From sequence record OR699282.2: a stretch of 64,000 nucleotides of DNA; one strand, given 5' to 3'. This document shows, one piece after another, positions 2,916 to 17,099 of this stretch. The notes beneath the pieces were generated by a model, which was not told the DNA's origin, ran no database searches, and worked only from the letters and a program-made list of their open reading frames with translations. Numbering within the stretch: the first letter of the stretch is position 1; the number at the start of each line of letters is the position of its first letter. Source of the stretch: Escherichia phage BAU.Micro_ELP-22. Both the position numbers and the translations under genes were made by a program.

Positions 2916-3248
2916 ATGGATTTAAAGCCAATTGTGGTTAACAAATACAAAGAACCGTATGATGTGTATATTGGACGTGGGTCTAAATGGGGAAACCCAT
3001 TTACCCATATTAAAGATAAACAAACCAAAGCCGAGTTCATTGTTAGTACAAGAGAAGAATCAATTGAAAAATTCAGAGAATACATTATTGAACGTATTTC
3101 TTGTGGAGAAGTTAAGATTGATGAATTACTTGAACTCGCAGGGAAACGCCTTGGTTGTTTCTGTAAACCAAAATCATGTCACGGCGATGTTCTTGTCGAA
3201 ATAGTGAGTGCAATATTAGATGAATTACCAGACGATAATCAAGGATGA
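2916..3248 (+). CDS. conserved small protein, DUF4326-like (YDVYIGRGSKWGNPF motif)
   Basis: Motif YDVYIGRGSKWGNPF...CFCKPKSCHGDVL recalled as DUF4326-type; sits between nrdD and nrdG; 3' end overlaps the nrdG start by 29 nt. Confidence 0.45.
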   Translation: MDLKPIVVNKYKEPYDVYIGRGSKWGNPFTHIKDKQTKAEFIVSTREESIEKFREYIIERISCGEVKIDELLELAGKRLGCFCKPKSCHGDVLVEIVSAILDELPDDNQG

Positions 3249-3690
3249 TTTAGTAAATGGAGAGGGCGTTCGCTGCTCTTTATTTGTTAGTGGGTGTTCG
3301 CACGGATGTGATGGTTGCTTCAATGAAGAAGCATGGGATTACAGAAGTGGTCAATTGTTCAGTACTGAAACAGTTGAGATTATACTACAGGAACTAAAAA
3401 AACCATATGTTAGTGGTTTGTCACTTCTAGGCGGCGATCCATTAATGAAAAAGAATATAGATGAAGTTTTAAATCTATGCAAAGTAGTTAAAGAAACTTA
3501 TCCTAGTAAAACTATTTGGTGCTGGAGTGGGTATACTTTAGATGAGATTATGAAAAATCATGCTAAAGATATACTTCAGTACTTAGATGTATTAGTTGAT
3601 GGTAAGTTTATTGAGTCCGAAAAGAATTTAAAATTACCTTTCCGTGGTTCAAATAATCAAAGAATACTATATAAAAATAAAGATTTTTAG
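3220..3690 (+). CDS. nrdG: anaerobic ribonucleotide reductase activating protein (radical SAM)
   Basis: N-terminus MNYQ...VNGEGVRCSLFVSGCSHGCDGCFN with a CxxxCxxC-type cluster; 156 aa, same length and N-terminus pattern as T4 NrdG from memory. Confidence 0.85.
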   Translation: MNYQTIIKDDLVNGEGVRCSLFVSGCSHGCDGCFNEEAWDYRSGQLFSTETVEIILQELKKPYVSGLSLLGGDPLMKKNIDEVLNLCKVVKETYPSKTIWCWSGYTLDEIMKNHAKDILQYLDVLVDGKFIESEKNLKLPFRGSNNQRILYKNKDF

Positions 3691-3694
3691 CATA

Positions 3695-3718
3695 AGCACC
3701 CGTTGGGTGCTTTTTTAT
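3695..3718 (+). terminator. intrinsic terminator (agcaccc-gtt-gggtgct + TTTTTT)
   Basis: 7-bp perfect stem plus T-run immediately after the nrdG stop. Confidence 0.6.
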
Positions 3719-3724
3719 TATGTA

Positions 3725-3732
3725 TATAAATA
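3725..3732 (+). promoter_or_regulatory. T4-type late promoter box TATAAATA
   Basis: Exact TATAAATA about 35 nt upstream of the first large structural gene (3767). Confidence 0.4.
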
Positions 3733-3766
3733 CATTAACTAATATCTAATTTATAAGGGATATATA

Positions 3767-6463
3767 ATGTCAAAGAAAATATATGGTGGCTTAGATGTCA
3801 CACATAATGTGACAGTTAATGGTAAAAGAACAATTCAAGGAATAAATGAACAAGTTTTTGATTCCAACGGTAACTTGGAATTAGATACTTATTCCAGAGA
3901 TGAAGTACTAGATATAGTAAGTATGATGCCAATCTCCCATTATGGTTCACAAAACTATCTACCTGCGGGTGTTTCTGGGGATTTCAATGGTGCATCAGAA
4001 AACCAGTCACAACGTAGAAATAAAATTTTATTAGAAAACGATGGTACACTAGTACTTTTACGTAGTGGGACAAACGGTAGTGTTGAGGGATTATTTTATT
4101 CATATTTGGCTAACGCATTATCAGTTGATGACATGAGCCGTACAATTAACACCAGTCGTCAATACAAGCCTGGGTTTTTTGGTTCAAATAGAGTTGCGAT
4201 TGGTTTATACAATACTGATCCAAATATTTTACTCGGTAGATATATTGATACTTCTAACAGTACTAATGGTTTGTTCATATCAATTACCAATGGTACATTA
4301 GATGATAAATTGCATACTGGTTTTTTCGTTAACCAAGCAGATATATCACCTGAAGGTGGTATTGAATATGCTATGATGGCAGAAGATGGTTCTATATATG
4401 TTTTTAACGTACTTAATGAAAATAACCAACTACAATTAGTTGTTGTTAAAGTTGTTTATAATATAAGCAATGGTACTTATACTGCAACTCGAATTACTGG
4501 ATGGACTACTAAAACATTTTATAACACAACTTATTCTGCACAAAATAATATGGTTATTACTAATCAGGTAACATCAACAAATATTGCTGATAAACCTTAT
4601 GTGTATGTTCCACAAAATCTACGTGGTATTGGGATTTACATGACATCAATTGATTTATATGTTGCACAGCAGCCAGGAACGCAGAATTTCCGCTTTAGAA
4701 TGAACGGGGACGCTTGGTTTACAATGGCAACATATAATACACGTCCACAGCATAGTTACAGTTTTGTGTTCAATATGAGTACTAAACAATGTACATTAGA
4801 TGCAGGTAACGATATTGGTTCATATCAAGCACCATTAGTTATAACTAATACTGGTTCGGCATTAGTTCCTACTGGTAACGTTTTAAATAACGATCCATTG
4901 TATAACCATGCAAATGCAAGAAACATTTATAGTTCATATTTTTATTTGAATTCTGGTGAAGCTTTTTGTACTGCATGTCCAAACTTAGCAGAACCATTAC
5001 TTATGCAAAAAGCTAAGTTTCCTATTCAAATAGTTTATAGTATGCTGAATGTCCGTGCTGTACTTTCTACTGACTTCAAAGGTGGTATAGTTCGCCCGTC
5101 TTTTGGTTCAGCGGTTGGTTCATTTATTAATGGTGTAGAATTACTACCAGATAACAGTACTAAACAATATTCACGTGCATCAGGTAGTGGTGGATTTAGA
5201 CCATCATATGCAGTTCATAAAAGTACTCCTAATTTTACATTTAAATCATTATCTTTAGGAACAATACAAGGTTATGAACCTACAGTTGAACGTGCTAATG
5301 TTGATGATAATGCAAATAATAGAATTTTTATTAGTAGTATTTCTGGGTCAACTGTCACAACCAATGGTGGTATTTTTATGGTTGGGCAACGTTATTCACA
5401 ATCATTATCCTATGATAAAAACTTAAATGGCACAGGAATTATAAGCGTTACACAATCAGTACTGGACAATTTTAGAAATACTGAATATGCCAAAGTTCTA
5501 AGTGATTGGAATTTATCAGCACAAGCATACCGTGATATGACACTATTTGTTCCACAACAAACAGACATTCCAGCTTTTGTTATGTTGAGTACAATTACTA
5601 ATGATTATAGAAACTATATTAGAATTGCTGAAGTTAATGTCAATACTAGAGTTGGTAATATTACATCTATTACATTTAAGCGTTTAGTACTTGAGAATAC
5701 GTATGGTGATAACTTTACACCAACTGGGAATGGTTCGATTGCATCTTCTTCTGTTGGTTTGACAATATATGATGGTGGTTCATTCTACTTCATTGGTGGT
5801 TCTGACCCATTATCACATCCAACAATAGGTAATACTGCAACTCATCAATTTAGAGCATATGTAACTAAATCAACTGCACAATTTACAAGTTTTATAATTA
5901 CTGGTTCTCATGCCAGTTATGAACAAGGAAGTCAACCAGCAGCATTACCTGGTATTGGTTTTGGAATTTTTGAACCAATTGATTACTCAAATAAAATGAC
6001 ATTCAAAAAATATGGAACAACGATTGCAGACTATAATAACTGGACTGCACAAGGTAGCCCAATTAACGTAGTATCCCAGGACGTTGCTCAAGGGTTTATT
6101 GTATATTTTACAGAGGAAACACCAGTTATTCTTTCAGGTAAGTCATTTTCACTACCAGTTTCAAATATTGATTTGAGAACTATTAAGTCTAATCCAGCAA
6201 ATACAACATTTTATGTATATGTTAAATTGGAACAAGGATTGGCAAACTATTACATAACTACTGATGTTATTTCTGAAACAGGAACAACTGCATATAATAT
6301 TTTTTGGATAGGTACAATTCAAACTAATGCAATTCAAATCGAAACAATTAATATACAAAAACGTTCCCGTTTAGATATATTTGGTGCTTCACTTGAATCA
6401 GCAGGTTCATCGTTCCCAGTTAGCTACGGTCTACCATCACAAACAGGAACCATAAACTGGTAA
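3767..6463 (+). CDS. large virion fibre/adhesin-like protein, paralog 1 (898 aa)
   Basis: Long Ser/Thr/Asn/Gly-rich ORF; shares an N-terminal motif (RDEVLDIVSMMPISHYG, LRSGTNGS) and a C-terminal module (VVSQDVAQGF...KSNPANTTFY...SSFPVS.G.PS.TGT..W) with 6475 and 7079. Confidence 0.6.
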   Translation: MSKKIYGGLDVTHNVTVNGKRTIQGINEQVFDSNGNLELDTYSRDEVLDIVSMMPISHYGSQNYLPAGVSGDFNGASENQSQRRNKILLENDGTLVLLRSGTNGSVEGLFYSYLANALSVDDMSRTINTSRQYKPGFFGSNRVAIGLYNTDPNILLGRYIDTSNSTNGLFISITNGTLDDKLHTGFFVNQADISPEGGIEYAMMAEDGSIYVFNVLNENNQLQLVVVKVVYNISNGTYTATRITGWTTKTFYNTTYSAQNNMVITNQVTSTNIADKPYVYVPQNLRGIGIYMTSIDLYVAQQPGTQNFRFRMNGDAWFTMATYNTRPQHSYSFVFNMSTKQCTLDAGNDIGSYQAPLVITNTGSALVPTGNVLNNDPLYNHANARNIYSSYFYLNSGEAFCTACPNLAEPLLMQKAKFPIQIVYSMLNVRAVLSTDFKGGIVRPSFGSAVGSFINGVELLPDNSTKQYSRASGSGGFRPSYAVHKSTPNFTFKSLSLGTIQGYEPTVERANVDDNANNRIFISSISGSTVTTNGGIFMVGQRYSQSLSYDKNLNGTGIISVTQSVLDNFRNTEYAKVLSDWNLSAQAYRDMTLFVPQQTDIPAFVMLSTITNDYRNYIRIAEVNVNTRVGNITSITFKRLVLENTYGDNFTPTGNGSIASSSVGLTIYDGGSFYFIGGSDPLSHPTIGNTATHQFRAYVTKSTAQFTSFIITGSHASYEQGSQPAALPGIGFGIFEPIDYSNKMTFKKYGTTIADYNNWTAQGSPINVVSQDVAQGFIVYFTEETPVILSGKSFSLPVSNIDLRTIKSNPANTTFYVYVKLEQGLANYYITTDVISETGTTAYNIFWIGTIQTNAIQIETINIQKRSRLDIFGASLESAGSSFPVSYGLPSQTGTINW

Positions 6464-6474
6464 AGGATTACATA

Positions 6475-7062
6475 ATGGCATATAAAATAAGAGCAGACCT
6501 TAAGGCAATGCAACAAGTTACAGTTCAGGGTAAAAGTACTGGTCTTGGTGTATTAGGTAATAATATGACTTATTACCCAACAAATTCAAATGGGGAATGT
6601 ACATTCCCCTCTATTACCAAAGATGAAGTTAACTTTATTGTCAATGGATTACCACTTACACAATACGGAGAATTGTATGATGACGCTAGTCTAAATATTA
6701 CTTCATCAGGCTATAGTCTTACATTTAACAGACAGATACCATCATTTATTGGTGGTTATCTTTATAAATTTCCAGCAGTTTCTATTTTTGCTTCAACTGT
6801 TTCATCTGGAACACAAACACAATACGTATATGCAACGTTAGTTCTCGGTGAACCAATTTATAAAATATCACCAACACAAATACAAGAATCTGAAATTATA
6901 ATGTTTATTGGTACTCTGACCGTTGGTACAAGTGGTATTACAAATATAAACATTAATAAAGTATCCAGATTTAGTACATATAGACCTAGTGTTACACAAA
7001 AAGGTTCTTCATTCCCAGTCAGTACTGGAAAACCATCAGAAACTGGTACAATTGGTTGGTAA
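6475..7062 (+). CDS. short paralog (195 aa) carrying the N- and C-terminal modules of the flanking fibre-like proteins
   Basis: TKDEVNFIVNGLPLTQYG near the N-terminus and ...RPSVTQKGSSFPVSTGKPSETGTIGW at the C-terminus. Confidence 0.5.
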   Translation: MAYKIRADLKAMQQVTVQGKSTGLGVLGNNMTYYPTNSNGECTFPSITKDEVNFIVNGLPLTQYGELYDDASLNITSSGYSLTFNRQIPSFIGGYLYKFPAVSIFASTVSSGTQTQYVYATLVLGEPIYKISPTQIQESEIIMFIGTLTVGTSGITNININKVSRFSTYRPSVTQKGSSFPVSTGKPSETGTIGW

Positions 7063-7078
7063 ATTAAGGAAAAGAAAG

Positions 7079-9808
7079 ATGTCATCAAAACGAATTATAG
7101 GAAGTGCCGAGATCCTTGGGAACTTGGCAATTGGACAAAGGTACGCTATGCGTACTTTTAATGGAACCTCACCGAATGCCAATACTGGAATTGTTCAATA
7201 TCCAATATATAAGCGTTCAGAAGTTCAAAGTATTTTAGATATGTTGCCTATATCACGTGTAGGAGAAATGGATTACTTACCATTAAACGTAAGTGGGTCG
7301 TATGAAGGTGCTACACCTATGTCAAGTGACCAAGTAGTTCAGCCAACAATTATTGAAGATGATGGAACCGCCGTTGTTCTGCGTAGCGGAACCAATGGTA
7401 GTACTAAAGGTTTTTATTATTCATTTATACGAGAAATCAGAAATATAACTATGATTTCACAAGAAAGTGTTATTTCAACCAATTCAATGTATAAACCTTC
7501 AATTATGAGTAGTACTGAAAATATTAAGTATTTTATTGGCTCTAATGGTTATGAGATGCTTGGATGTTTAAGTACTGAAGATAATTATATTTTTACTATA
7601 ACCAATGGCACATTTAACGAAATATCACATATTCATGCTAAAGTGCCAAGTACTTCTTTTGGTAATGATATGCCAATATATACACATATTGTTGGGACAA
7701 AGGTTTATATTTGGTGTAAAGATAAAAGTGTTTCTAATTTAGGATTAGCACTTTCAATTTATACAGTAGAGCTAAGTGATGTGAAAGCAAGCTCAATGGC
7801 ATCATTAACAAAAGTTACTGGGTTATCAGGTCAAACTGTTCGAAACACAAGTTATTCTGCATCTAATAACATAAGAGTGTTCGATAAATTATATAGTGTT
7901 GGTACTAGCTCGGATTCATTATTCGAAGTTACATCACCAGTATCACGTGTAGAATTTTCAGACTATACAGACTTTAACATTCAAGCCAACGTTAGTCCTG
8001 ATTTATCAAAAATACGTGTAACTTTATATCCAACACATCGAATGGTTACACCTTTGTATATTTCAACAGTTTATGGTACTGGAATCAGTTTTGTTTATAA
8101 TATAAACTCAAAATCTATGTCACTAGATGGTAGTGCTCGTGCACCTGCAACTGTTTCATATAATAATGGATTTCAAGTTTCTAACCCATTTGAAATTAAT
8201 ATGGTCAACTTCACAGGGACAACTGCTGCTGGTGTATTAGGAAACGCAGGTGGTTTATGTCAAACTAAAGATGGTTTGGTATTTGCATCTAAATTTAGAT
8301 GGAGTTCAACTGAATTTTATGGTCTACAACGATATAAGGTTAGTGGTACACCGTTTGATTCATGGGTTGCCAGTACTAGAACCGCAAGTAACGTTATAAA
8401 TGCAAACGTTTTACCAGTTTTTGGTAGTGCTGTTGGTGCAAACCTTTTAGGTGTACGTTTCATCGATAATAGAAAAATATTATTAGCATGTTCTGGTACG
8501 TATGATGATGTAACATATAATTATAATAATACTGTTTTTTCTGAAATAGGTTCACAACCAACATATCAATATAACTCAGTTCAAAATAATACTACATTAA
8601 ATGGTTTTGCACCACAATCTAATCGTAAACAAATAGGCGATGATTTTACATACACTGCTATGATTTCTCTTGTTGATACCGATGGTAGTGTTAGATGCTA
8701 TGGAACATCATTCATTGAAGGTGTATATAAAACAAGTGGTGGATTATTAAATCCAGATACTTTAGAATTTGATGAAACATATACAATAGAACCAACGGTA
8801 TTAGAATCATTAAAACAAGATATTTTTGCTAATATAGGAAACTCTGGCATTGTTGGTACACTATCTGGACAAATTGTATTATATTATGTACCTGATAATA
8901 CTTTTTCTAAATCCATCGCAGTAGTTTCAGCATATAATCTTAACAATAACCAAGGTTATGCAATCTATGCCGAAGTTGATGTTGTATTATCTGGAACTAA
9001 CATAACTTCAGCTACATTGGTGAGTACTAGATATGAAACACTGAGTTCTGTTACAGGAATTATTACTGAAGCATATATGAAACGTTGTACTGGTCTAACA
9101 GTTGCAAAATATTCAGGATTTGGTTACATTGGTGTTGATGCCGTTCATCAATTTTCACAACCAGGTAATGCACAATTTAAGATGATGATAGCTAAAACAG
9201 TAGATGGTGTCATAACATCAAATCGTTTTTTATCATCTAGTTACATCCAACTTGGTGCAGCATATCAACATGGTGTTATTCCTGGTGTTGGTTTTGGATA
9301 TTACAATTTTCAAGATTCTGACTATCAAACCAAATCTGTATTCAGCGTTTTTGGTACAACATCTGCTGAAATGGATGGTTTAATTAGTGGAAATGGTAGC
9401 GTTAAAGAAAAGATTGTGGTAGTATCACAAGACGTTGCACAAGGATTCTCAGTGTACTTTACACGTGAAGTTCCGGTGTTTTTAGGTGGAATTTTCGACA
9501 GACTACCTATACAAAGTGTTGATTTAAGTACTGTAAAAAGTAACCCAGCTAATACTACGTTCTATTTGTATATACAAATGAACAGGAATACTAAGAAAGC
9601 GTCATATGTTATTAGTACTGAAACAATTGATGAATCTTTAACTAGCACTTACATTGGTAAGATAGTTACTGGAACTTCAGGAATAACTTCAATTGATACA
9701 GAAAAAGTAACTCGTTTTTTGACATATCGTCCAAGTACAACGAAACGTGGTTCAGCGATACCTGCCAGTACTGGTGTACCATCAGGTCCAGGTACACGTT
9801 GGAAATAA
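7079..9808 (+). CDS. large virion fibre/adhesin-like protein, paralog 2 (about 909 aa)
   Basis: ORF track starts at 6989 overlapping the previous gene; start moved to Met 7079 with AGGA RBS. Shares KRSEVQSILDMLPISRVG, LRSGTNGS and the C-terminal VVVSQDVAQGF...KSNPANTTFY...TGVPSGPGTRWK module. Confidence 0.6.
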   Translation: MSSKRIIGSAEILGNLAIGQRYAMRTFNGTSPNANTGIVQYPIYKRSEVQSILDMLPISRVGEMDYLPLNVSGSYEGATPMSSDQVVQPTIIEDDGTAVVLRSGTNGSTKGFYYSFIREIRNITMISQESVISTNSMYKPSIMSSTENIKYFIGSNGYEMLGCLSTEDNYIFTITNGTFNEISHIHAKVPSTSFGNDMPIYTHIVGTKVYIWCKDKSVSNLGLALSIYTVELSDVKASSMASLTKVTGLSGQTVRNTSYSASNNIRVFDKLYSVGTSSDSLFEVTSPVSRVEFSDYTDFNIQANVSPDLSKIRVTLYPTHRMVTPLYISTVYGTGISFVYNINSKSMSLDGSARAPATVSYNNGFQVSNPFEINMVNFTGTTAAGVLGNAGGLCQTKDGLVFASKFRWSSTEFYGLQRYKVSGTPFDSWVASTRTASNVINANVLPVFGSAVGANLLGVRFIDNRKILLACSGTYDDVTYNYNNTVFSEIGSQPTYQYNSVQNNTTLNGFAPQSNRKQIGDDFTYTAMISLVDTDGSVRCYGTSFIEGVYKTSGGLLNPDTLEFDETYTIEPTVLESLKQDIFANIGNSGIVGTLSGQIVLYYVPDNTFSKSIAVVSAYNLNNNQGYAIYAEVDVVLSGTNITSATLVSTRYETLSSVTGIITEAYMKRCTGLTVAKYSGFGYIGVDAVHQFSQPGNAQFKMMIAKTVDGVITSNRFLSSSYIQLGAAYQHGVIPGVGFGYYNFQDSDYQTKSVFSVFGTTSAEMDGLISGNGSVKEKIVVVSQDVAQGFSVYFTREVPVFLGGIFDRLPIQSVDLSTVKSNPANTTFYLYIQMNRNTKKASYVISTETIDESLTSTYIGKIVTGTSGITSIDTEKVTRFLTYRPSTTKRGSAIPASTGVPSGPGTRWK

Positions 9809-9813
9809 ATTTA

Positions 9814-9842
9814 AAGCTCGTCTATTGACGGGCTTTTCTTTT
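9814..9842 (+). terminator. intrinsic terminator (gctcgtc-tatt-gacgggc + T-run)
   Basis: Stem with one G-U pair followed by TTTTCTTTT after the 7079 gene. Confidence 0.45.
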
Positions 9843-9853
9843 ATGTGTATAAT
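9825..9853 (+). promoter_or_regulatory. sigma70-like promoter (TTGACG-17-TATAAT)
   Basis: -35 TTGACG embedded in the terminator stem, 17-nt spacer, -10 TATAAT; AGGAGG RBS before the 9876 ATG. Confidence 0.35.
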
Positions 9854-9875
9854 TGAATAAAAATAGGAGGAAATT

Positions 9876-10442
9876 ATGGTCAAAACTTTATTACCACCAC
9901 CAAAACGTCACAAAATCAAAGAAATGAAAGAACAACGTACATTAAAGATGTACAACAATTTAGTTAAGTTACTGTGTAAAAGTCCATCGCTCAAAGCAGA
10001 GTTTAAAACTGATGATGACCGTAAAGCACTAATTGAGATGAAATATATGCTCAGTAAAATGTCCTTTTACAAATTTGTAAAAGAATACGCATCTGACCCA
10101 TTTAGTCCTCGTTGGAGAGCCAAACCAAGAGAGTATTTTTACGGTGGTTCATATACAGATCGCATTCAAGACACAGTGATGGGAGTTGAATTTGAAATCG
10201 ATTATGAGCCGAATGGTGAGGAAATCTTGCAGATTGAGAAACGTTTACCAAGTGAAGAAGAAATTTATGTTTATGCAAGAAAACTTTCAACTTACAGTTC
10301 AAGAATTACTCTAGGCAATTTAGATTCATTAATTATTTTCTATACACGTGTTGGTGTAGATAAGATGGTAACTAAACTCAATGAACTTTCATTACAACAA
10401 AAACAGATTAATGCATACAAAGACATTACTGATTTATACTAA
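9876..10442 (+). CDS. hypothetical protein, tandem paralog family member 1
   Basis: Shares D-x-D-R-K-x-L-I-E-x-KY-x-LSK and a downstream W/Y-rich segment with 10449 and 10967. Confidence 0.5.
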   Translation: MVKTLLPPPKRHKIKEMKEQRTLKMYNNLVKLLCKSPSLKAEFKTDDDRKALIEMKYMLSKMSFYKFVKEYASDPFSPRWRAKPREYFYGGSYTDRIQDTVMGVEFEIDYEPNGEEILQIEKRLPSEEEIYVYARKLSTYSSRITLGNLDSLIIFYTRVGVDKMVTKLNELSLQQKQINAYKDITDLY

Positions 10443-10448
10443 TGAGGA

Positions 10449-10970
10449 ATGGATATGTTTTTTGGATCAGTTGGAAAACAAAACAGTACTTTAATTTGGC
10501 ATGAAATTATCTTTAAAATTATATCTAAAAGCTACTCACTAAAGGATATTATCACCACAGATAATGATAGACGTATCCTGTTAGATGCAAAATATAAATT
10601 GAGCAAACACCCTTTACTTTCTTTAATCATTGATTACGTTAATGATTATGAATCTAGTCGTTGGAAGTGGGAAGACGGCGGTTTATTTCGTGGAAAAACA
10701 TTCTACGGTGCGGAACGATATGTTTTCAGTGATGCATCAAATGGCGTTAAGTTTGTTATTAGAAACTTTAACTCCAAAGAAAATGATTATCTTGAAAGTG
10801 GAGTGAAAGTATATATCGATAATAATAGCAATGTCCTAACATATGACGAATCACTAATTATGTTACAAATAATGCGTGGTGTTGAAGGTGTAAGAAACAA
10901 CCTTACTAAATTGAAAATCCAGCAAAATGATATACATAATAGACAGAAAATTAAGGGTTTATATAAATGA
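10449..10970 (+). CDS. hypothetical protein, tandem paralog family member 2
   Basis: TDNDRRILLDAKYKLSK motif aligning with neighbours. Confidence 0.5.
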   Translation: MDMFFGSVGKQNSTLIWHEIIFKIISKSYSLKDIITTDNDRRILLDAKYKLSKHPLLSLIIDYVNDYESSRWKWEDGGLFRGKTFYGAERYVFSDASNGVKFVIRNFNSKENDYLESGVKVYIDNNSNVLTYDESLIMLQIMRGVEGVRNNLTKLKIQQNDIHNRQKIKGLYK

Positions 10971-11476
10971 TTTCATTTTTCAAAAAGAAACAAAAAGTTG
11001 ATGAAACAGGATTAGAATCGTTTCTATGGACTCTTATCATCAAAAAAAGTCCATTGATAAAAGAATATGCTATCAATGATGCTAATAGAAAAACTATCAT
11101 TGAATACAAATACGAATTATCAAAATGTGATCCAATCGTTTATCACTTTGCGAAGTACTGTTCAAAAAATTTATCGGATATCACAATAGACCATGAGTCA
11201 GTTCCAATGAGCTTTCCTTATGGTGATTGGGTAGATACTTTTGATATTTTTGATGGGTCCAATGGATTCAGTTTCTTTTACTCGTCAAATAAAGCAAATG
11301 TTCGTATTAAAACAGAGATAGGTTGGGCACAGCATAGCTCAAATAAAGAAGATTATAATTTACTAGCTGACGTATACCGAAGTGTGAAGAATTCAAAGGA
11401 TATTGATGAAAGAATTAAAAAGCAAAATCGTATTTCTTTATCACTTGAAACATACAAGTCAAAGTATGGTGGTTAA
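10967..11476 (+). CDS. hypothetical protein, tandem paralog family member 3
   Basis: NDANRKTIIEYKYELSK motif; 4-nt overlap with upstream gene. Confidence 0.5.
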   Translation: MISFFKKKQKVDETGLESFLWTLIIKKSPLIKEYAINDANRKTIIEYKYELSKCDPIVYHFAKYCSKNLSDITIDHESVPMSFPYGDWVDTFDIFDGSNGFSFFYSSNKANVRIKTEIGWAQHSSNKEDYNLLADVYRSVKNSKDIDERIKKQNRISLSLETYKSKYGG

Positions 11477-11478
11477 CG

Positions 11479-11880
11479 ATGACTACAGTTGATGATATCT
11501 ACAGCACTATACGCAATATGAGTACAGATAGAAAAGTATTTGGTGATAAAGAAAAATCTAAGTGTTATGGTATTGATTCTTTTGATATAATTTCTTATGA
11601 GTACAACACGAGTGGAAATAGTTCACTGAATATCGTCTGCCCTCGTGACCCAGAAAATAATTTTATGTATGTTGAAATTAATAATGATGGAATATTTTTT
11701 ACAAAAGTTTTTAAAGGTGGAATTAATTACGAACCAATTGAATGTATGAATGAAGAAACTTTCTTTCAAGAAGATACAATTATCAATTTAGGTTTTAGTT
11801 TTGATGATTATAAAACATTAGAACATGACTTTAATCGTTATTATAACGGTTTCTTAAAGGAGTTAACAATTTATCTATGA
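11479..11880 (+). CDS. hypothetical protein (133 aa)
   Basis: ORF in the same array; no clear motif. Confidence 0.4.
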   Translation: MTTVDDIYSTIRNMSTDRKVFGDKEKSKCYGIDSFDIISYEYNTSGNSSLNIVCPRDPENNFMYVEINNDGIFFTKVFKGGINYEPIECMNEETFFQEDTIINLGFSFDDYKTLEHDFNRYYNGFLKELTIYL

Positions 11881-13109
11881 ATAACCAATATGTTGAACAA
11901 ACAATAGTGAAACACTTGGCTGGGTCACAAGCCTACGGAACCAGTACACCTGAAAGTGATACTGATTATCGTGGTATTTTTCTTGCTAATAAAGAATTTA
12001 TTCTTACGCCATTCTATAAGGTCAAAGAAGTAGCTGATAAAAATGAAGAAGATACTAAATTCTATGAGTTAAATCAGTATTTAAAATTATACACTGAAGC
12101 CAACCCTAATATATTGGAATCACTATGGGTCGATCCAGAACACATTGTAGAAAGTACTGAGATTTATGACTATCTTCGTTCATTTAACCAAAAACTTCTT
12201 AGTTCCAAGATTGCATTTTCATACACTGGATATGCATATAATCAGATTAAGCGTATGACAAATCATCACGGTTGGATGGATAAAGAGCGTATTGCTGAAA
12301 AACGATTAAATGAGATTTTAGAAGAACACCCTGTCGATGAGGTTCTTGCGTGGATGTATGATTCATTCCCACAGTATCTTGTTGAACGTTTAGATACATC
12401 CAACTTACATCCATTTAATGCTAAAAAGATTGATTTTGAAAAATATATGCGTGATACGTCATTGCAGTTAGTTTCGAAAAATCCATTAAAGCAATATCAT
12501 TTTGTAAGATTAGTGCATAACTACACTACTGAAAAAATTCTTGATCGTGATTTCAATTTATTGAATTTTAATAATGGTTATGAACTAATTCATTACGGAG
12601 AAAACATTTTTGCGATTATTAAAAATCCGAATGAAAGCACTATCAACGGTGATGGATCATTGCGTTATTTTTCTAAAGAGCGTAGTACTGAAGAGTTGAA
12701 AACCAAACCAGAACTAATTGTCAAATTTAACGAAAAAGAATATCAGGAAAATAGTGAGAATAGGAAAAGTTATCATAAATGGAAAGAAAATCGTAATGCC
12801 AAACGTGCTATTTTAGAATCACAACACGGATACGATTGTAAACATGCTATGCACACAATCCGACTTTTGAATAGTGCAGAAGAAGCATTACAAAGTGGAA
12901 TTATTCAAGTTAAACGACCAGATGCACAAATGTTGATGGATATTCGTAATGGTAAATGGAAGTATGAAGAAGTATTAGAATATTTCGATGATAAAGTACA
13001 ATACATTCGTGATGTTCTATATAAGAAATCAGTACTTCCTAAAAAACCAAACATCAAGTTAGCATCAAAAATTATCATTGATATTAGAGAAATGCAATGG
13101 TATAAGTAA
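11877..13109 (+). CDS. Pol-beta-superfamily nucleotidyltransferase (410 aa), specificity unknown
   Basis: N-terminal HLAGSQAYGTSTPESDTDYRGIF = G-S-x9-S-D-x-D signature of minimal nucleotidyltransferases; further acidic residue in LWVDPE. Confidence 0.5.
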   Translation: MNNQYVEQTIVKHLAGSQAYGTSTPESDTDYRGIFLANKEFILTPFYKVKEVADKNEEDTKFYELNQYLKLYTEANPNILESLWVDPEHIVESTEIYDYLRSFNQKLLSSKIAFSYTGYAYNQIKRMTNHHGWMDKERIAEKRLNEILEEHPVDEVLAWMYDSFPQYLVERLDTSNLHPFNAKKIDFEKYMRDTSLQLVSKNPLKQYHFVRLVHNYTTEKILDRDFNLLNFNNGYELIHYGENIFAIIKNPNESTINGDGSLRYFSKERSTEELKTKPELIVKFNEKEYQENSENRKSYHKWKENRNAKRAILESQHGYDCKHAMHTIRLLNSAEEALQSGIIQVKRPDAQMLMDIRNGKWKYEEVLEYFDDKVQYIRDVLYKKSVLPKKPNIKLASKIIIDIREMQWYK

Positions 13110-13186
13110 CATATACAAGTGTAATGGTACTAAAAATGCCATTACACTCAATAAATACTCAATATAAATTAACACAAGGATTAAGT

Positions 13187-13315
13187 ATGGCACAACAAAT
13201 TTTCACAGATATCCACACTACCGGAGTTATTAAATTTCAAAATAATTTTTCAGGTGCAACTGGTGTAGACATTAAAAATGATGGTTTTAACATTGTCAGT
13301 ACTCGGATCTATTGA
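13187..13315 (+). CDS. small ORF (42 aa) overlapping the start of the next gene
   Basis: Start chosen at Met with AGGA RBS (ORF track 13124); ends inside ORF 13278, which is in the +1 frame. Confidence 0.25.
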   Translation: MAQQIFTDIHTTGVIKFQNNFSGATGVDIKNDGFNIVSTRIY

Positions 13316-13814
13316 TGGTGAAGATAGTTCTCTTAGTGATTCTGTGATTGCATCATTCGGAACTAATAAAAACAGTTCTTTTATTATATCTGGATGGACT
13401 GGAATGACTGATTCTGAAAATAATGTTAAGATAAAAGCTAAAGCTACTAACGAGAATCATGAAACAGAATGGGTAACATTATATGATAGTGCAAGTAATA
13501 AGTTATATAATGTATTAAGTTCTAATAATATTTTAATTAATCCACTGTCGGGTAATGCTGTTTTTAATATTAATTTATCTGATAGAAATACTACTATTTC
13601 GATTGGTGCGGCTCCTACTGAAGTTTATTCAATTACCATCCTATTAACACAACAAACAGGTTCAAACCTAGTTAATTGGGGTTCTAATGTTAAATGGTCA
13701 TATAACAGACCAGTTGTTCTTTCTTATGAAATTGGTGAAAAAGATATTATTTCATTAGAAACATATGATAAAGGAGTTACATGGTACGGTGCATTAATTA
13801 GAGCAGGAGTATGA
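13278..13814 (+). CDS. hypothetical structural-type protein (178 aa)
   Basis: Ser/Asn/Thr-rich ORF directly upstream of the large 13816 gene; start uncertain (no RBS at 13278). Confidence 0.4.
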   Translation: MMVLTLSVLGSIDGEDSSLSDSVIASFGTNKNSSFIISGWTGMTDSENNVKIKAKATNENHETEWVTLYDSASNKLYNVLSSNNILINPLSGNAVFNINLSDRNTTISIGAAPTEVYSITILLTQQTGSNLVNWGSNVKWSYNRPVVLSYEIGEKDIISLETYDKGVTWYGALIRAGV

Positions 13815-13815
13815 T

Positions 13816-16605
13816 ATGTTAAACAATAATATTGATAATATTGTACAACTTCTTTATGGGCATCACAAATTTATTGAAAGAAATACTGGTGATACAATAG
13901 ACCCAACAGTACAACATTATGTGGTGAATAATCAGGGTGTTTTGGCGAACAACCGTCATTTTATTAACTATTCTGCAATGGAAGGTCAACCAAACGGTGA
14001 CGGGACAACAGAAGGTCAAAGTCTATTAATTTTAGGATACATTTATGCGTATCTGGCAACAAATGATCCAATGTTTTTAGATAAAGCCAAATGGTACTGG
14101 GATGCATATCATCAGTACTTTTATGCTGGACGTGAATTACCAGATCCACCTACACCACTACAATGTAACTGGATAGTTAATGCCAAAGAACCTATATTGG
14201 CTAACTGGCCTTTAGCTGATGATGGATGGCCTACACATGGTGGTTTCAAGGGTGTAGAATTTACATTTACAAATGGACAATGTAAAATACCACATGGTGC
14301 ACCTTATTATGGTCAGTTCTTGGATAAAGTAACATTTGCATTCAAAGGTGCTTTAGCATGGAACCAAATAAATGCGTCAGTAAAAGCATTATTACCAGAT
14401 GGTAGTGTTGATTGGGATACACCAGGTGAACAATATGATGTTGACTGGATTATCGATTTCATGGGTAGAAAAATCGACTGGGATGGTAATATTTTAGCAG
14501 AAGGTTTTGACGAATCTGAAAAAGGAACTGTTCAATTAAAGAATACAACAATTAATGGTGTATATAAATTAAATTTTGCAAATCGTCAACCAGTAGAATA
14601 TGGTGGTGTGATAATTCAACGAAATGAAATGCAACACAACCGCCCACTTCATGTTCCAATTGATTTGGAATTTGCGGATAACGCATCAGATGCAGAATTG
14701 TGGTTTAGTGATGCTTCTTATTTGTTATATAAAATAACAAAAGAAAGAAAACATTATTTGGGTTGGAAATGTTCACTACTAACGTGTTATGCTTATGGTG
14801 ATATTGACTCCAGAGATAAATTTTTCAGACAAAGTACAATTGTAACCACACCATTCACTGATGGTATTTCCTATGAATATTTTTATCCAAGTGATGCTAT
14901 TGCTAAGTTTGGTAGAAATTCTCTAGGATATATTACTATCAGGCAAGACCAAAGTGCACAAAGTACAATGGAACAACAAGCTATTTGGTTCAGGGTCAAT
15001 GCTGATTCTAAATTACTTGTAGACTATGGTGGTGTATGTGATGATGGTAAGCCGTTATCATTTAAACCAGTACTGGAATTGTCAAAAACAAAAAATGACC
15101 ATGATGTTGTTCGTTATCGTTGTGGCTTACCGGAAAGTAAAGACCAAAATATCACACATTCATTAACACCTTTAAGTGCATTTGTTAGAGAAAAGAAAGC
15201 AGATGGTTCCCCTTATATAATTGCTGATAGTAGAATTGTTGTTCCTTATGGTGCAGCTACGTCCGAAATGATATATAGTACTGATATATTAGTTACACGC
15301 CGCGATACCATTAATCAGTTAGTTTGTGGTGAAGATGATGGTGCTGTTATTGGATTTTGGCTATTAGCAACAAATAAGTCTGAAGTTAAATCTTTTACCT
15401 ATCGTTCATATGAAGATGATTACAATATAAGAATTGTAGATGATAATGGTTGGAGATGGTGGTGGATGATTCCTGCAACACACGGGGAATGGACTACAAT
15501 CACACTAAGTCCCGATACATTACGTTTATCTGGGTATCAGCCAAATCATCCAAGTTCTGACCCAAGACCAGATGCACCAGTTTATAGTGAACTAGAAGAT
15601 ATTACTATTTTACCTGATACAACCCCAGTAGATGGTGTTACTGCAATAATTGATTGGTATTGTATTAATGACATTCCAGAATTATACACGGATGCTGACG
15701 GTGATGACTATACTATGACATTTTCAATAACAATTGCAGGTGAATCACCATATACTGCACAGTTAGGGGATTGTGTAATCAAAGATTATTTGTTAAACTC
15801 ATTGCATTACACACCAGGAACAATACCATTTTCTAACATCACTGACCCGTATGCGAACCAGTATTCAGGATGGCGTGGTTTACCGTATCCAGGTTATCAA
15901 TATCCTGTGATATATTGTTTTAAAGACCAGCCAGTAGATAACACACGCTTAGGAAACATGTTAAGCTTTATGAAAGATTCCCAAACATGGTTTACTCAAC
16001 AATTCGGTACTGTTGGTCCGTGTGCACAAGCATATGTTTGGAACCGCTGGGATAACTTAAAATATGGTGAACCAGATACATTTACTATGCTACATTGGGG
16101 TGATCAAGCATGGAGTGGGTATGAACCACGTGCGTTCTTTGGGGCTGCCAGAGCATGGCAAGAACTCGCAGAGAGAGGAATTGAACCACCAGCAGATCTT
16201 GTTGAATTTTGTGAGAATTGGATTCACTTTTTAATTCAATTTCAAAAAGATAATGATGGTCGTTCACCAACAATCTTCAATAAAGATGGCACAGTTGAAG
16301 GTCCAGATTGGGACTTTACAGGTCATATGTGTGGGTTGTGGTTAGCTGGGGCTTGTGCTGCTGGATTGGCTGGATGTAAAATAGAAGGTCTAACAACACT
16401 CGCTGATAACTTAGTTCTCGAACTTCAAAAGAATTATGTTATTGTAAATCCAGGTTCACCAATGAATGGTTCATGGAGTCCAGCAGTTAGAGAAGGTACT
16501 GATAATGGTATGTTTTTTGGTTTCTGGGCAGGTGAGATTATGCGTGGATTGGGATTATACTCAATGTACCGCTTAAACACACCAAATCGTTTCCGTGATT
16601 TATAA
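13816..16605 (+). CDS. large W/Y-rich protein (929 aa), putative tail-associated glycan-degrading enzyme
   Basis: Aromatic-rich composition (WYWDAYHQYFYAG, WRWWWMIP, GLWLAGACAAGLAG) reminiscent of alpha/alpha-toroid glycoside hydrolases; by impression only. Confidence 0.3.
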   Translation: MLNNNIDNIVQLLYGHHKFIERNTGDTIDPTVQHYVVNNQGVLANNRHFINYSAMEGQPNGDGTTEGQSLLILGYIYAYLATNDPMFLDKAKWYWDAYHQYFYAGRELPDPPTPLQCNWIVNAKEPILANWPLADDGWPTHGGFKGVEFTFTNGQCKIPHGAPYYGQFLDKVTFAFKGALAWNQINASVKALLPDGSVDWDTPGEQYDVDWIIDFMGRKIDWDGNILAEGFDESEKGTVQLKNTTINGVYKLNFANRQPVEYGGVIIQRNEMQHNRPLHVPIDLEFADNASDAELWFSDASYLLYKITKERKHYLGWKCSLLTCYAYGDIDSRDKFFRQSTIVTTPFTDGISYEYFYPSDAIAKFGRNSLGYITIRQDQSAQSTMEQQAIWFRVNADSKLLVDYGGVCDDGKPLSFKPVLELSKTKNDHDVVRYRCGLPESKDQNITHSLTPLSAFVREKKADGSPYIIADSRIVVPYGAATSEMIYSTDILVTRRDTINQLVCGEDDGAVIGFWLLATNKSEVKSFTYRSYEDDYNIRIVDDNGWRWWWMIPATHGEWTTITLSPDTLRLSGYQPNHPSSDPRPDAPVYSELEDITILPDTTPVDGVTAIIDWYCINDIPELYTDADGDDYTMTFSITIAGESPYTAQLGDCVIKDYLLNSLHYTPGTIPFSNITDPYANQYSGWRGLPYPGYQYPVIYCFKDQPVDNTRLGNMLSFMKDSQTWFTQQFGTVGPCAQAYVWNRWDNLKYGEPDTFTMLHWGDQAWSGYEPRAFFGAARAWQELAERGIEPPADLVEFCENWIHFLIQFQKDNDGRSPTIFNKDGTVEGPDWDFTGHMCGLWLAGACAAGLAGCKIEGLTTLADNLVLELQKNYVIVNPGSPMNGSWSPAVREGTDNGMFFGFWAGEIMRGLGLYSMYRLNTPNRFRDL

Positions 16606-16636: not shown

Positions 16637-16667
16637 AGAGAACTTCATATGGAGTTCTCTTTTTTTA
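16637..16667 (+). terminator. intrinsic terminator (agagaact-8 nt loop-agttctct + TTTTTTT)
   Basis: 8-bp perfect stem and T-run; overlaps the predicted transcript start of the promoter above. Confidence 0.5.
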
Positions 16668-16679
16668 TAAGGTGATAAA

Positions 16680-17099
16680 ATGTTAAATGAACGTATTAAA
16701 AATGCACTACATGTATTGAACCAAGAAGTAAATTCTATTGATAAAAGTACTGACCGTTATAAAGTAATGCATGAAATCAAACAAGAATTGGAATCTATTA
16801 ATAAGGGAGAATGGTGGTATCTTCAGCCCGAATATCAAACTCGTGAATTAAACGATGTTGAAAAAGAAATTGTCAAATTCATCACTACTCGTTACTGTGA
16901 TACATCAGAGAATGATGTATCAGCGAACTTCAATCTTACTAAATTGGAAGTCGAAGAAAAATTCAATTTTGATTGGCTTGATTGGCTTGAAATGGTCATG
17001 GAACTAGAAGAAAAATTCAATGTTGAAGTTGATGAAAAGTTCGAGAATAATGAAACTAAGCTGTATGAACTAGCAGAACATATTCAAAAAATGCTGTAA
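16680..17099 (+). CDS. hypothetical acidic protein (139 aa)
   Basis: ORF with GGTG RBS-like sequence upstream; no motif. Confidence 0.45.
   Translation: MLNERIKNALHVLNQEVNSIDKSTDRYKVMHEIKQELESINKGEWWYLQPEYQTRELNDVEKEIVKFITTRYCDTSENDVSANFNLTKLEVEEKFNFDWLDWLEMVMELEEKFNVEVDEKFENNETKLYELAEHIQKML

Follow-up and report, generated by a model that had tools for sequence, protein, structure and literature searches.

What do three consecutive genes of related sequence, one of them much shorter than the other two, contribute to a jumbo coliphage? The question is raised by positions 3,767 to 9,808 of the window, a stretch of 64,000 nucleotides from Escherichia phage BAU.Micro_ELP-22 (OR699282.2), which is an Asteriusvirus (PBECO4/121Q/phAPEC6-like) and a jumbo myovirus. 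Phages of this genus, such as PBECO4, 121Q, phAPEC6 and JP4, are under study as agents against Salmonella and pathogenic E. coli. Their adsorption apparatus is essentially unannotated. The three genes, here termed P1, P2 and P3 (Table 1), appear as 'hypothetical protein' in all close records, P2 and P3 are not called in the phAPEC6 record, and the Asteriusvirus genome papers (Sharanji, fEgEco12) hold nothing on them. We propose that this late-type unit of three anciently diverged paralogues probably encodes host-recognition proteins of the jumbo-phage tail, situated at the peripheral baseplate or fibre tip.

A putative late transcription unit beside nrdD and nrdG

The array adjoins the nucleotide-metabolism genes nrdD and nrdG, and the main tail module is located far off. 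Based on its sequence signals, it is a single unit of late type in which a terminator is followed by TATAAATA, the genes P1, P2 and P3 with gaps of 11 nt (P1-P2) and 16 nt (P2-P3), and a second terminator. The upstream hairpin AAGCACCCGTTGGGTGCTT is conserved in front of the array in phages UE-S1, 7t3, Hallingskeid and CBB. Another terminator-like hairpin within P2 (6738-6756) is ascribed to chance, having only three GC pairs and lying in conserved coding sequence. The start positions initially listed for the three ORFs (3767, 6475 and 7079) match the ORF list. In the case of P3, the upstream GTG at 6989, which would extend the gene into an overlap with P2, was rejected; the ATG at 7079 is favored because the N-termini of the orthologues read MSKKIIG.

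The late-type transcription assumed in the initial annotation is supported by the succession of a terminator and TATAAATA. This octamer, identical to that of T4-type late promoters, is present once in the 64 kb against 11.1 copies expected. Its core ATAAATA occurs nine times against 38.7 expected, and seven of these nine copies sit 35-57 nt upstream of gene starts. Genome-wide, the motif is avoided apart from sites ahead of late or structural genes, and the position of TATAAATA is conserved in the diverged relatives UE-S1, EJP2, 7t3, Hallingskeid and CBB. In two relatives, GAP32 and CBB, ATAAATA has been described as a late motif; it precedes structural genes in CBB, which has a gp55-like sigma factor (PMC5259590). 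A difference from T4 is that a search for homologues of gp33 and gp45 in CBB found none (PMC5259590).

Table 1. Features of the late unit and of the encoded proteins (positions in the window)
Feature	Position	Strand	Description	Basis
Upstream terminator	3694..3712	+	intrinsic terminator at the end of the nrdD-nrdG unit; hairpin AAGCACCCGTTGGGTGCTT, then a T-run	terminator scan; annotated as terminator in G17
Late-promoter-like motif	3725..3732	+	T4-type, TATAAATA, ends 35 nt before the P1 ATG	
P1	3767..6463	+	898 aa, large paralogue; phAPEC6 gp323c, 121Q gp499	ORF list
P1 N-terminal module	3767..3976	+	aa 1-70; short strands, helix with Y-S/T-K/R-x-E-V, then P-I-S-x-Y-G	
P1 beta-propeller-like region	4019..5026	+	about aa 85-420, approximate limits; begins at the LE.DGT..LR.GTNGS motif	
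P1 C-terminal beta-sandwich module	6077..6376	+	aa 771-870; also in P2 and P3	BLASTP, alignment
P1 C-terminal tail	6377..6460	+	aa 871-898, ending in RLDIFGASLESAGSSFPVSYGLPSQTGTINW; position-1-specific signature	
P2	6475..7062	+	195 aa, headless paralogue	ORF list
P2 parts			N-module aa 1-68; shoulder-like beta-sandwich aa ~69-160; conserved tail aa 161-195	
P3	7079..9808	+	909 aa from ATG 7079, second large paralogue	ORF list
P3 N-module			aa 1-72	
P3 C-terminal module	9428-9805	+	aa 784-909	
Closing terminator	9813..9836	+	intrinsic terminator of the three-gene unit, 10-bp stem and T-run	terminator scan; annotated as terminator in G17

Old paralogues with conserved ends

Pairwise protein comparison identifies P1, P2 and P3 as true paralogues and old duplicates. 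P1 and P3 align over their full length with 28% identity (945 columns, E 2e-63). Residues 77-195 of P2 match the C-termini of P1 (BLASTP, E 9e-17) and P3 (E 7e-24), and its residues 1-85 match the N-terminus of P1 (E 4e-7). The paralogy that the initial annotation had deduced from shared motifs is therefore far above chance. The N-proximal motifs it quoted (YSRDEVLDIVSMMPISHYG, ITKDEVNFIVNGLPLTQYG and YKRSEVQSILDMLPISRVG) are present, as are the C-terminal ends of the type GS(S/A)(F/I)P(V/A)S.G.PS..GT..W. The sequence LRSGTNGS, however, is shared by the two large proteins and not by P2. Likewise, the central regions, said to differ, are more diverged than the ends, also when compared across related phages, but those of P1 and P3 are homologous along their whole length.

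A full-length member consists of five parts: an N-module, a beta-propeller, extra beta domains (up to about residue 770 in P1), a C-terminal beta-sandwich and a conserved tail of some 30 residues. P2 aligns as the large form without about 700 central residues, joining an N-terminal segment of about 68 aa to a C-terminal one of about 120 aa. It had been described as a minimal version, and indeed it is a genuine gene under selection: a dN/dS of 0.05-0.12 and its conservation in other genera, where identity falls to 40-44%, rule out a pseudogene remnant.

The designation 'fibre-like' does not hold at the level of predicted structure, which is that of globular all-beta proteins built from a propeller and sandwich domains. 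The AlphaFold model of P1 (pLDDT 85.4, pTM 0.79) is compact, and its closest structural neighbors are globular propellers. An elongated, repetitive fibrous fold (a shaft of trimeric beta-helix, coiled-coil or collagen-like type) was found neither in this model nor as fibre repeats in Pfam, where P1, P2 and P3 have no family at E<=1, catalytic families included. The structural matches of the propeller, glycosidases among them, are generic (5-10% identity) and do not tell lectin, enzyme and scaffold apart. The N-terminal module common to the three proteins is modeled with low confidence in the P1 monomer, and the C-terminal tail has a low pLDDT. In the P2 model, of moderate confidence (overall pLDDT 64), the C-terminal beta-sandwich matches the shoulder fold of the phage p2 RBP and TssK, at fold level only (6-14% identity).

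As judged from the sequences of seven phages, the triplication is older than the genera Asteriusvirus, Mimasvirus and Eneladusvirus. The proteins fall into three position-specific clades, and the C-terminal tail is peculiar to the position of the gene; e.g., the P1 tail signature is kept in the position-1 genes of CBB, GAP32, BF and Hallingskeid. The order of long (L) and short (S) members varies, with L-L-L arrays in CBB, GAP32, BF and Yen9-04, L-S-L in Asteriusvirus and Hallingskeid, and S-S-L in XaC1. Headless forms recur in other lineages, as indicated by about 45 short sequences among the best 150 cluster representatives and a long-short gene pair on one metagenomic contig. P3 is the fastest-evolving member, with 67% identity to UE-S1 versus 94-99% for the flanking genes, and a dS of 1.40 versus 0.11 for the neighboring nucleotidyltransferase gene; dN/dS in the array ranges from 0.04 to 0.33. 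The jumps in dS indicate allele exchange which, together with a divergence faster than that of the flanks, is as expected for host-range genes.

A modular family of jumbo-phage tail paralogues

Homology over the protein body makes the array a new member of a modular tail paralogue family present throughout jumbo phages. P1 and P3 match PHROG 3573 (E 2e-274 and 3e-267, respectively), and the set has further matches to PHROGs 26864 (E 4e-115) and 7449 (E 7.5e-38) and, by BLASTP, to RAY gp20 (E 3e-75) and pEa_SNUABM_37 gp21 (E 8e-53). The whole of P2 can be aligned with the C-terminal 200 aa of the latter, yet this is a low-identity extension that lends no support to an ancestral short form. Residues 544-1409 of SPN3US gp168 are aligned by hhalign with a probability of 98.9% (E 2.4e-17, 768 columns), and the homology of its body to P1-P3 begins at the P-I-S-x-Y-G motif, takes in the propeller and includes the C-terminal module. 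This body comparison covered gp168; the link noted for gp169 is a domain resembling the N-terminal domain of phiKZ gp131 (gp131-N). SPN3US gp168, gp169 and gp170 have been grouped as 'paralog family C' and 'baseplate/tail fiber candidate', with a tail location shown for gp168 only, and are near-equimolar (1.08, 1.41 and 1.00) (PMC5105663, PMC5694885). Two or three tandem paralogues transcribed in one direction are found in the window and in CBB, GAP32, BF, Yen9-04, Hallingskeid, XaC1, EL, RAY, pEa_SNUABM_37 and Proteus phage 10.

In most phiKZ-like members, the protein is longer at its N-terminus by a part of 120-540 residues that includes a gp131-N-like docking domain; the Asteriusvirus proteins lack this part. 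The P1-like body stands behind this domain in RAY gp19, EL gp114/gp115, Proteus phage 10 (QMP24011) and pEa_SNUABM_37 gp20 (E 1e-7 to 1e-21), and the domain also occurs in SPN3US gp168/gp169. It is absent from P1-P3 and from the entire window. Nor is it universal in the family, since Goslar gp26 lacks it as well; in that phage, the long gp26 and the short gp28 are flanked by gp25 and gp29, both of them gp131-like fibre genes, and no copy numbers for gp26-28 are given in the Goslar paper and its supplements. The genomic setting differs too: the array lies beside nrdG in Rak2-like phages and in the baseplate module in their phiKZ-like relatives.

Homology of P1-P3 to phiKZ gp131, gp132 and gp133 was rejected, as these three proteins, compared singly, gave hhalign E values of 0.3-0.7. 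The P1/P3 profile matched gp131 over just 18 residues (E 0.31) and gp133 with an E value of 0.55. When the N-module profile was compared with a joint gp131/133/134/135 profile, an 18-residue Y-T-K-x-x-V-D match was obtained (E 0.043, probability 1.2%). At E values of 0.04-0.3, this short motif gives a weak hint that the N-module may resemble the junction helix of gp131. The likeness of SPN3US gp168 to gp131 is confined to the initial ~150 residues of gp168, a domain missing from P1-P3. A profile search of PDB sequences (hmmsearch) gave no matches.

The supposed occurrence in the virion is supported, by a weak signal, for the P1 orthologue: four peptides of gp323c (5.6% coverage) were detected in CsCl-purified phAPEC6, a result that applies to the virion as a whole (PMC7247149). 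In the CBB virion proteome table (55 proteins), CBB_147-149 are not listed. The 'structural protein' labels of CBB_148/149 do not stem from CBB's own mass spectrometry and were discarded as evidence.

Proposed role and comparison with known tail systems

The same end pieces are kept by all three proteins, which therefore probably help in host recognition. We infer the tail location in this phage, the receptor binding and the oligomeric state from these comparisons. Both end modules would drive oligomerization and docking onto the tail, and the propeller-containing middle would bind, and possibly cleave, a glycan of the host surface. With such a division of labor, the array may contribute to adsorption and host range. 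P2 would be a selected headless subunit that retains the assembly modules only and most plausibly co-assembles with, or adapts, its headed paralogues.

Alternatively, P1, P2 and P3 may each form a separate homo-oligomer, P1 and P3 being independent RBPs of different specificity and P2 serving by itself as a plug or adaptor in the manner of SPP1 gp22. We consider this possible but doubtful: different genera retain the C-terminal tail that is specific to each position, and strict co-transcription, the near-equimolar SPN3US paralogues and the co-assembly in phiKZ fit a joint complex at least equally well. The specific joint complex we can envisage is, in turn, tentative and rather unlikely in its full form. 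Here, a single pseudo-threefold hetero-oligomer would be built from P1, P2 and P3 as chains that cannot replace one another, joined through their shoulder-like domains and terminal peptides, with P2 as an obligatory headless chain. If true, it would constitute an asymmetric receptor-binding unit, on which Asteriusvirus would have two different propeller heads, CBB three and XaC1 one. The long/short dimorphism that recurs across jumbo phages would then be a general way to tune the number and specificity of heads without disturbing assembly, and the principle of phiKZ gp131/133/134/135 would apply also to another and far larger family of proteins.

It is improbable that P1-P3 are decoration proteins of the virion or anchors of 'hairy' whiskers or capsid fibres, with the three paralogues serving three attachment rings or sites. 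Phage phAPEC6 does carry hair-like filaments at three annular positions of its sheath and on its capsid (PMC7247149), CBB likewise has whiskers, the P1 orthologue is of low abundance in the phAPEC6 virion, and the gp131-N domain that docks on the baseplate is missing from the Rak2-like proteins. The models, however, are compact propeller and sandwich structures rather than filaments of ~120 nm, and the array also occurs in many phiKZ-like phages and in GAP32, a phage not reported to have whiskers. Moreover, the SPN3US gp168-170 homologues are regarded as baseplate/fibre candidates and phiKZ-like phages fuse the P1-like body to a fibre-anchoring domain. A non-structural role as late glycan-acting enzymes or lectins, which might for instance degrade or bind polymers of the host envelope in lysis or superinfection exclusion, with P2 as a decaying remnant, would suit the location beside nrdD/nrdG and away from the main tail module, the glycosidase-like propeller and the absence from the CBB table, but is highly improbable given the P1 orthologue in CsCl-purified phAPEC6, the SPN3US homologues that are tail proteins, the predicted RBP/baseplate shoulder fold of the shared module, the lack of a catalytic family in Pfam and the strong purifying selection and deep conservation of P2.

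The preferred reading as tail host-recognition proteins turns the array, by its tie to the SPN3US gp168/EL gp115 tail family, into a set of concrete candidate host-range determinants. The module boundaries are useful for engineering, since one could exchange the propeller middle and leave the ends in place. The headless variants and the series of L-L-L, L-S-L and S-S-L arrays provide a natural experiment on which parts serve assembly and which recognition. This finding is relevant, too, to the peripheral baseplate/fibre density that is unresolved in the cryo-EM maps of Goslar and phiKZ.

Compared to known systems, the likeness to the lactococcal phage p2 RBP (ORF18), the N-terminal domain of the T6SS protein TssK and SPP1 gp22 is confined to the predicted fold of the shoulder beta-sandwich, which is C-terminal in P1-P3 and N-terminal in p2 RBP and TssK. 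SPN3US gp168-170, EL gp114-116, RAY gp19-gp20 and the Goslar proteins are likewise tandem paralogues and, as P1-P3 probably are, virion proteins, and long and short forms coexist among them. In phiKZ, cryo-EM shows the gp131-N domain to anchor twelve peripheral fibres, in which the paralogues gp131 (three copies), gp133, gp134 and gp135 co-assemble as a hetero-hexamer (PMC13250141), and the C-terminal domain of gp131 is a seven-bladed propeller (Sycheva 2012). The design logic is the same: tandem paralogues share an assembly module, one or more have a distal propeller as the putative host-binding part, and others are shorter and lack it. The propeller-less gp133-135, which join gp131 in one fibre base, would be the analogue of P2, and in sister phages a single protein joins the gp131-N domain directly to the P1-like body. 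Whereas the module shared in phiKZ is N-terminal only, P1-P3 share both ends.

Organization and transcription of the array

The best-supported reading of the array formed by the genes P1, P2 and P3 is that of a late operon of tail-associated, modular host-recognition proteins. Window positions 3000-10500 share 95-99.9% DNA identity with the Asteriusvirus jumbo coliphages UB, JP4, PBECO4, phAPEC6, 121Q and G17, in whose records P1-P3 are labelled 'hypothetical protein' throughout, apart from ORFs left uncalled in phAPEC6. There, positions 11476-14809 (MK817115) match window 6475-9808 with 99.5% DNA identity, yet have no CDS for P2 or P3; the sole CDS in this stretch is a 114-nt 'gp322c' inside P3. 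In some records (Salmonella phage 7t3, 10515-13364) P3 starts further upstream, at an in-frame codon that corresponds to GTG 6989 of the window, so that its 5' end overlaps the 3' end of P2. Orthologue N-termini and an AAGGA Shine-Dalgarno sequence favour ATG 7079 as the likely start.

Features of the array and its surroundings (window positions)
Feature	Position	Strand	Details
DUF4326-type small gene	2916-3248		between nrdD and nrdG; 29-nt overlap with nrdG start
nrdG end	3690		upstream of array
Hairpin terminator	3694-3712		strong; after nrdG
TATAAATA	3725-3732		late-promoter-like motif between terminator and P1 start (3767)
ATAAATA sites listed	3726, 13151, 34960, 38034, 41746, 42271, 53896		
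P1	3767-6463	+	898 aa, ORF list
P2	6475-7062	+	195 aa, ORF list
P3	7079-9808	+	909 aa, ORF list
Terminator	9813-9836		10-bp stem; 3' of P3
Sigma70-type promoter	9825-9853		near-consensus, TTGACG-17-TATAAT
Second tandem paralogue set	9876-11476		188, 173 and 169 aa
Tail-fibre cassette	13278-16605		178 aa + 929 aa; after nucleotidyltransferase gene
Tail, array position 1			...KRSRLD(I/V)FGASLE(S/A)AGSSFPVSYGLPS..G.INW
Tail, array position 2			...KVSRF..YRPS.TQ.GS.FPVS.G.P...G.IGW
Tail, array position 3			...KVTRF..YR.S.TKRGSAIP.STGVPSG.GTRW

The three genes are separated by 11 nt (P1-P2) and 16 nt (P2-P3), with a Shine-Dalgarno sequence in each gap. The 64-kb window contains a single copy of the motif TATAAATA versus 11.1 expected, and nine copies of the core ATAAATA versus 38.7, an approximately four-fold depletion of the core. 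Seven of these nine cores sit 35-57 nt 5' of gene starts, among them that of the tail-sheath gene at 35017. UE-S1, EJP2, 7t3, Hallingskeid and CBB retain this layout before the array, a terminator plus (T)ATAAATA some 35-41 nt 5' of the ATG, amid diverged sequence. For CBB and GAP32, ATAAATA had earlier been proposed to act as late promoter for structural genes, and CBB encodes a T4 gp55-like sigma factor (PMC5259590). Given the rarity and placement of the motif, its conservation in relatives and this precedent, the claim of the initial annotation that the array is late-promoter-driven appears well supported. The ATAAATA sites could give a genome-wide late-promoter map of Asteriusvirus.

The promoter 5' of the second paralogue set overlaps the array terminator, placing the late unit directly next to one of early or middle type. 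Within this set, ORF 9876 is 30% identical to ORF 10449 (E 2e-14) and more weakly related to ORF 10967 (E 4e-4). The tail-fibre cassette, equivalent to the MS-detected gp314c of phAPEC6, is missing from the same place in UE-S1 (16641-16776), which points to a second variable host-range locus near the array. DUF4326 genes share the array neighbourhood in XaC1, GAP32 and CBB as well.

Paralogy and evolution of the modules

Pairwise alignment bears out three paralogous proteins with common ends. The alignment of P1 with P3 covers both proteins in full (28% identity, E 2e-63). P2 resembles the two large proteins in its residues 77-195, which correspond to the C-terminal ~120 residues of P1 (E 9e-17) and P3 (E 7e-24), and its first ~70 residues resemble the P1 N-terminus (E 4e-7). 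In a joint alignment, P2 equals a large protein minus exactly its central ~700 residues, confirming it as a minimal version devoid of the central domain. Of the shared N-proximal motifs, LRSGTNGS is present in P1 and P3 and absent from P2, and the middles of P1 and P3 turned out to be diverged homologues rather than different domains.

nrdG precedes the array in Asteriusvirus, Hallingskeid, CBB, GAP32, BF and fHe-Yen9-04, and across those genera each array position keeps its own conserved C-terminal tail (Table). In a neighbour-joining tree built from the C-terminal 125 residues, three position clades emerge, each with all seven phages, which indicates an ancient triplication whose copies cannot replace one another. 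The array is long-long-long in CBB, GAP32, BF and fHe-Yen9-04, long-short-long in Asteriusvirus and Hallingskeid, and short-short-long in Xanthomonas phage XaC1. These differences imply that P2 descended from a full-length position-2 gene, with an independent loss of the central region (the 'head') at position 1 in XaC1. An end-module profile retrieved 558 proteins (E<=1e-3) from 1.84 billion cluster representatives; of the top 150, about 45 are complete short-form proteins (117-251 aa), and in a metagenomic contig one short form adjoins a long member. Headless members are thus a stable, recurrent class.

Purifying selection acts across P1-P3 (dN/dS 0.04-0.33; P2 0.05-0.12). Identity to UE-S1 is 94-99% for flanking genes, 83% for P1, 86% for P2 and 67% for P3, with the ends at 80-89% and the middle at 60-63%, in agreement with the proposed conserved ends and diversified middles. 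Synonymous divergence jumps tenfold between adjacent genes (dS versus UE-S1, 1.40 for P3 and 0.11 for the nucleotidyltransferase; versus G17, 0.49 for P1 and 0.05 for P2), which indicates that individual alleles have been exchanged by recombination, as is typical of host-range genes.

Predicted structure and presence in the virion

The AlphaFold model of P1, built from a 32-sequence alignment (pLDDT 85.4, pTM 0.79), is entirely beta and unreliable only at residues 1-53 and 871-898. The label 'fibre-like' does not fit this predicted globular protein, and on this prediction P1-P3 are not fibres. In P2, a beta-sandwich is modelled confidently (residues 70-160), with uncertainty over the N-terminal 63 and C-terminal 33 residues. 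It matches the cyanophage A-1(L) tail fibre (7.5), phage 1358 RBP (6.7), SPP1 gp22 (5.8), TssK (5.6, 5.1), HFTV1 fibre (5.2) and a phi812 baseplate protein (5.2), and on these matches the module common to the three paralogues is predicted to have the 'shoulder' fold. In the matched systems this fold trimerises and anchors RBPs to baseplates, whereas for P1-P3 the likeness concerns the predicted fold only. The termini are strongly conserved and disordered in the monomer models; they may fold only inside an assembly.

The P1 orthologue phAPEC6 gp323c was found in purified virions (4 peptides, 5.6% coverage; PMC7247149), P2 and P3 were undetectable in that proteome because they are unannotated in the phAPEC6 record, and CBB_147-149 are absent from the CBB MS table. 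Presence in the particle is thus supported for P1 only, at low abundance.

Relatives and assembly

No Pfam family and no match in a profile search of PDB sequences was found for P1-P3, and PHROGs assigns them to families 3573, 26864 and 7449, all function-unknown. By tblastn, 96 phage records contain the C-terminal module and 170 a P1 homologue, nearly all jumbo phages among the matches listed: Rak2-like (CBB, GAP32, BF, fHe-Yen9-04, Erwinia pEa_SNUABM_12/47/50) and phiKZ-like or other (EL, RAY/Ea35-70, SPN3US, Proteus and Aeromonas phages). Homology spans the whole P1 body in RAY gp20 (E 3e-75) and pEa_SNUABM_37 gp21 (E 8e-53), and the body aligns with residues 544-1409 of SPN3US gp168 (hhalign 98.9%). 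SPN3US gp168/gp169/gp170 are a recognised paralogue family, in which gp168 has been placed in the tail (PMC5105663). Each of the three carries the label 'baseplate/tail fiber candidate', and their normalised abundances are close (1.08, 1.41 and 1.00; PMC5694885).

In phiKZ, the gp131 N-domain anchors twelve peripheral fibres under gp130, and the paralogues gp131x3, gp133, gp134 and gp135 co-assemble via this domain with the gp131 propeller distal (2026 atlas; PMC13250141). A homologous domain directly precedes a P1-like body in RAY gp19 and EL gp114/115, and also in Proteus phage 10 (QMP24011) and pEa_SNUABM_37 gp20 (E 1e-7 to 1e-21 for the whole set). Unlike these relatives, P1-P3 lack the docking domain, which was not found across the 64-kb window, and show no similarity to gp131; they belong to the SPN3US gp168/EL gp115 family, not that of gp131. 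In the Goslar tail-fibre locus (MK327938, 6463-14351), gp131-N-type fibres are mixed with gp26 and two ~165-aa genes. Here gp26 (867 aa, a long P1-family member without docking domain) and gp28 (169 aa, a short P1-family member) are flanked by the gp131-like fibre genes gp25, which has a Peptidase_S74 chaperone, and gp29; gp27 holds the N-terminal fibre motif only. In the Goslar cryo-EM study the peripheral baseplate and the fibres were not resolved, and products of this locus may make up part of the peripheral baseplate density left unassigned there.

Both ends of P1-P3 would be assembly or docking modules, composed of the shoulder-type sandwich and terminal peptides, while the propeller-containing middle would be the diversifying, ligand-binding and possibly glycan-cleaving part; P2 would be a headless subunit with assembly parts only. 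The chains may assemble into a single hetero-oligomer or into separate homo-oligomers; the position-specific tails, co-transcription, equimolar SPN3US paralogues and phiKZ precedent suggest the former. A role as whisker or decoration proteins is less likely, since P1-P3 are predicted globular and the array also occurs in phages without reported whiskers. Modular arrays of RBP/tail-fibre paralogues are already known from jumbo phages, and P1-P3, read as modular host-recognition proteins, are a better-defined instance, whose structural dissection, like the long/short series, provides useful leads.
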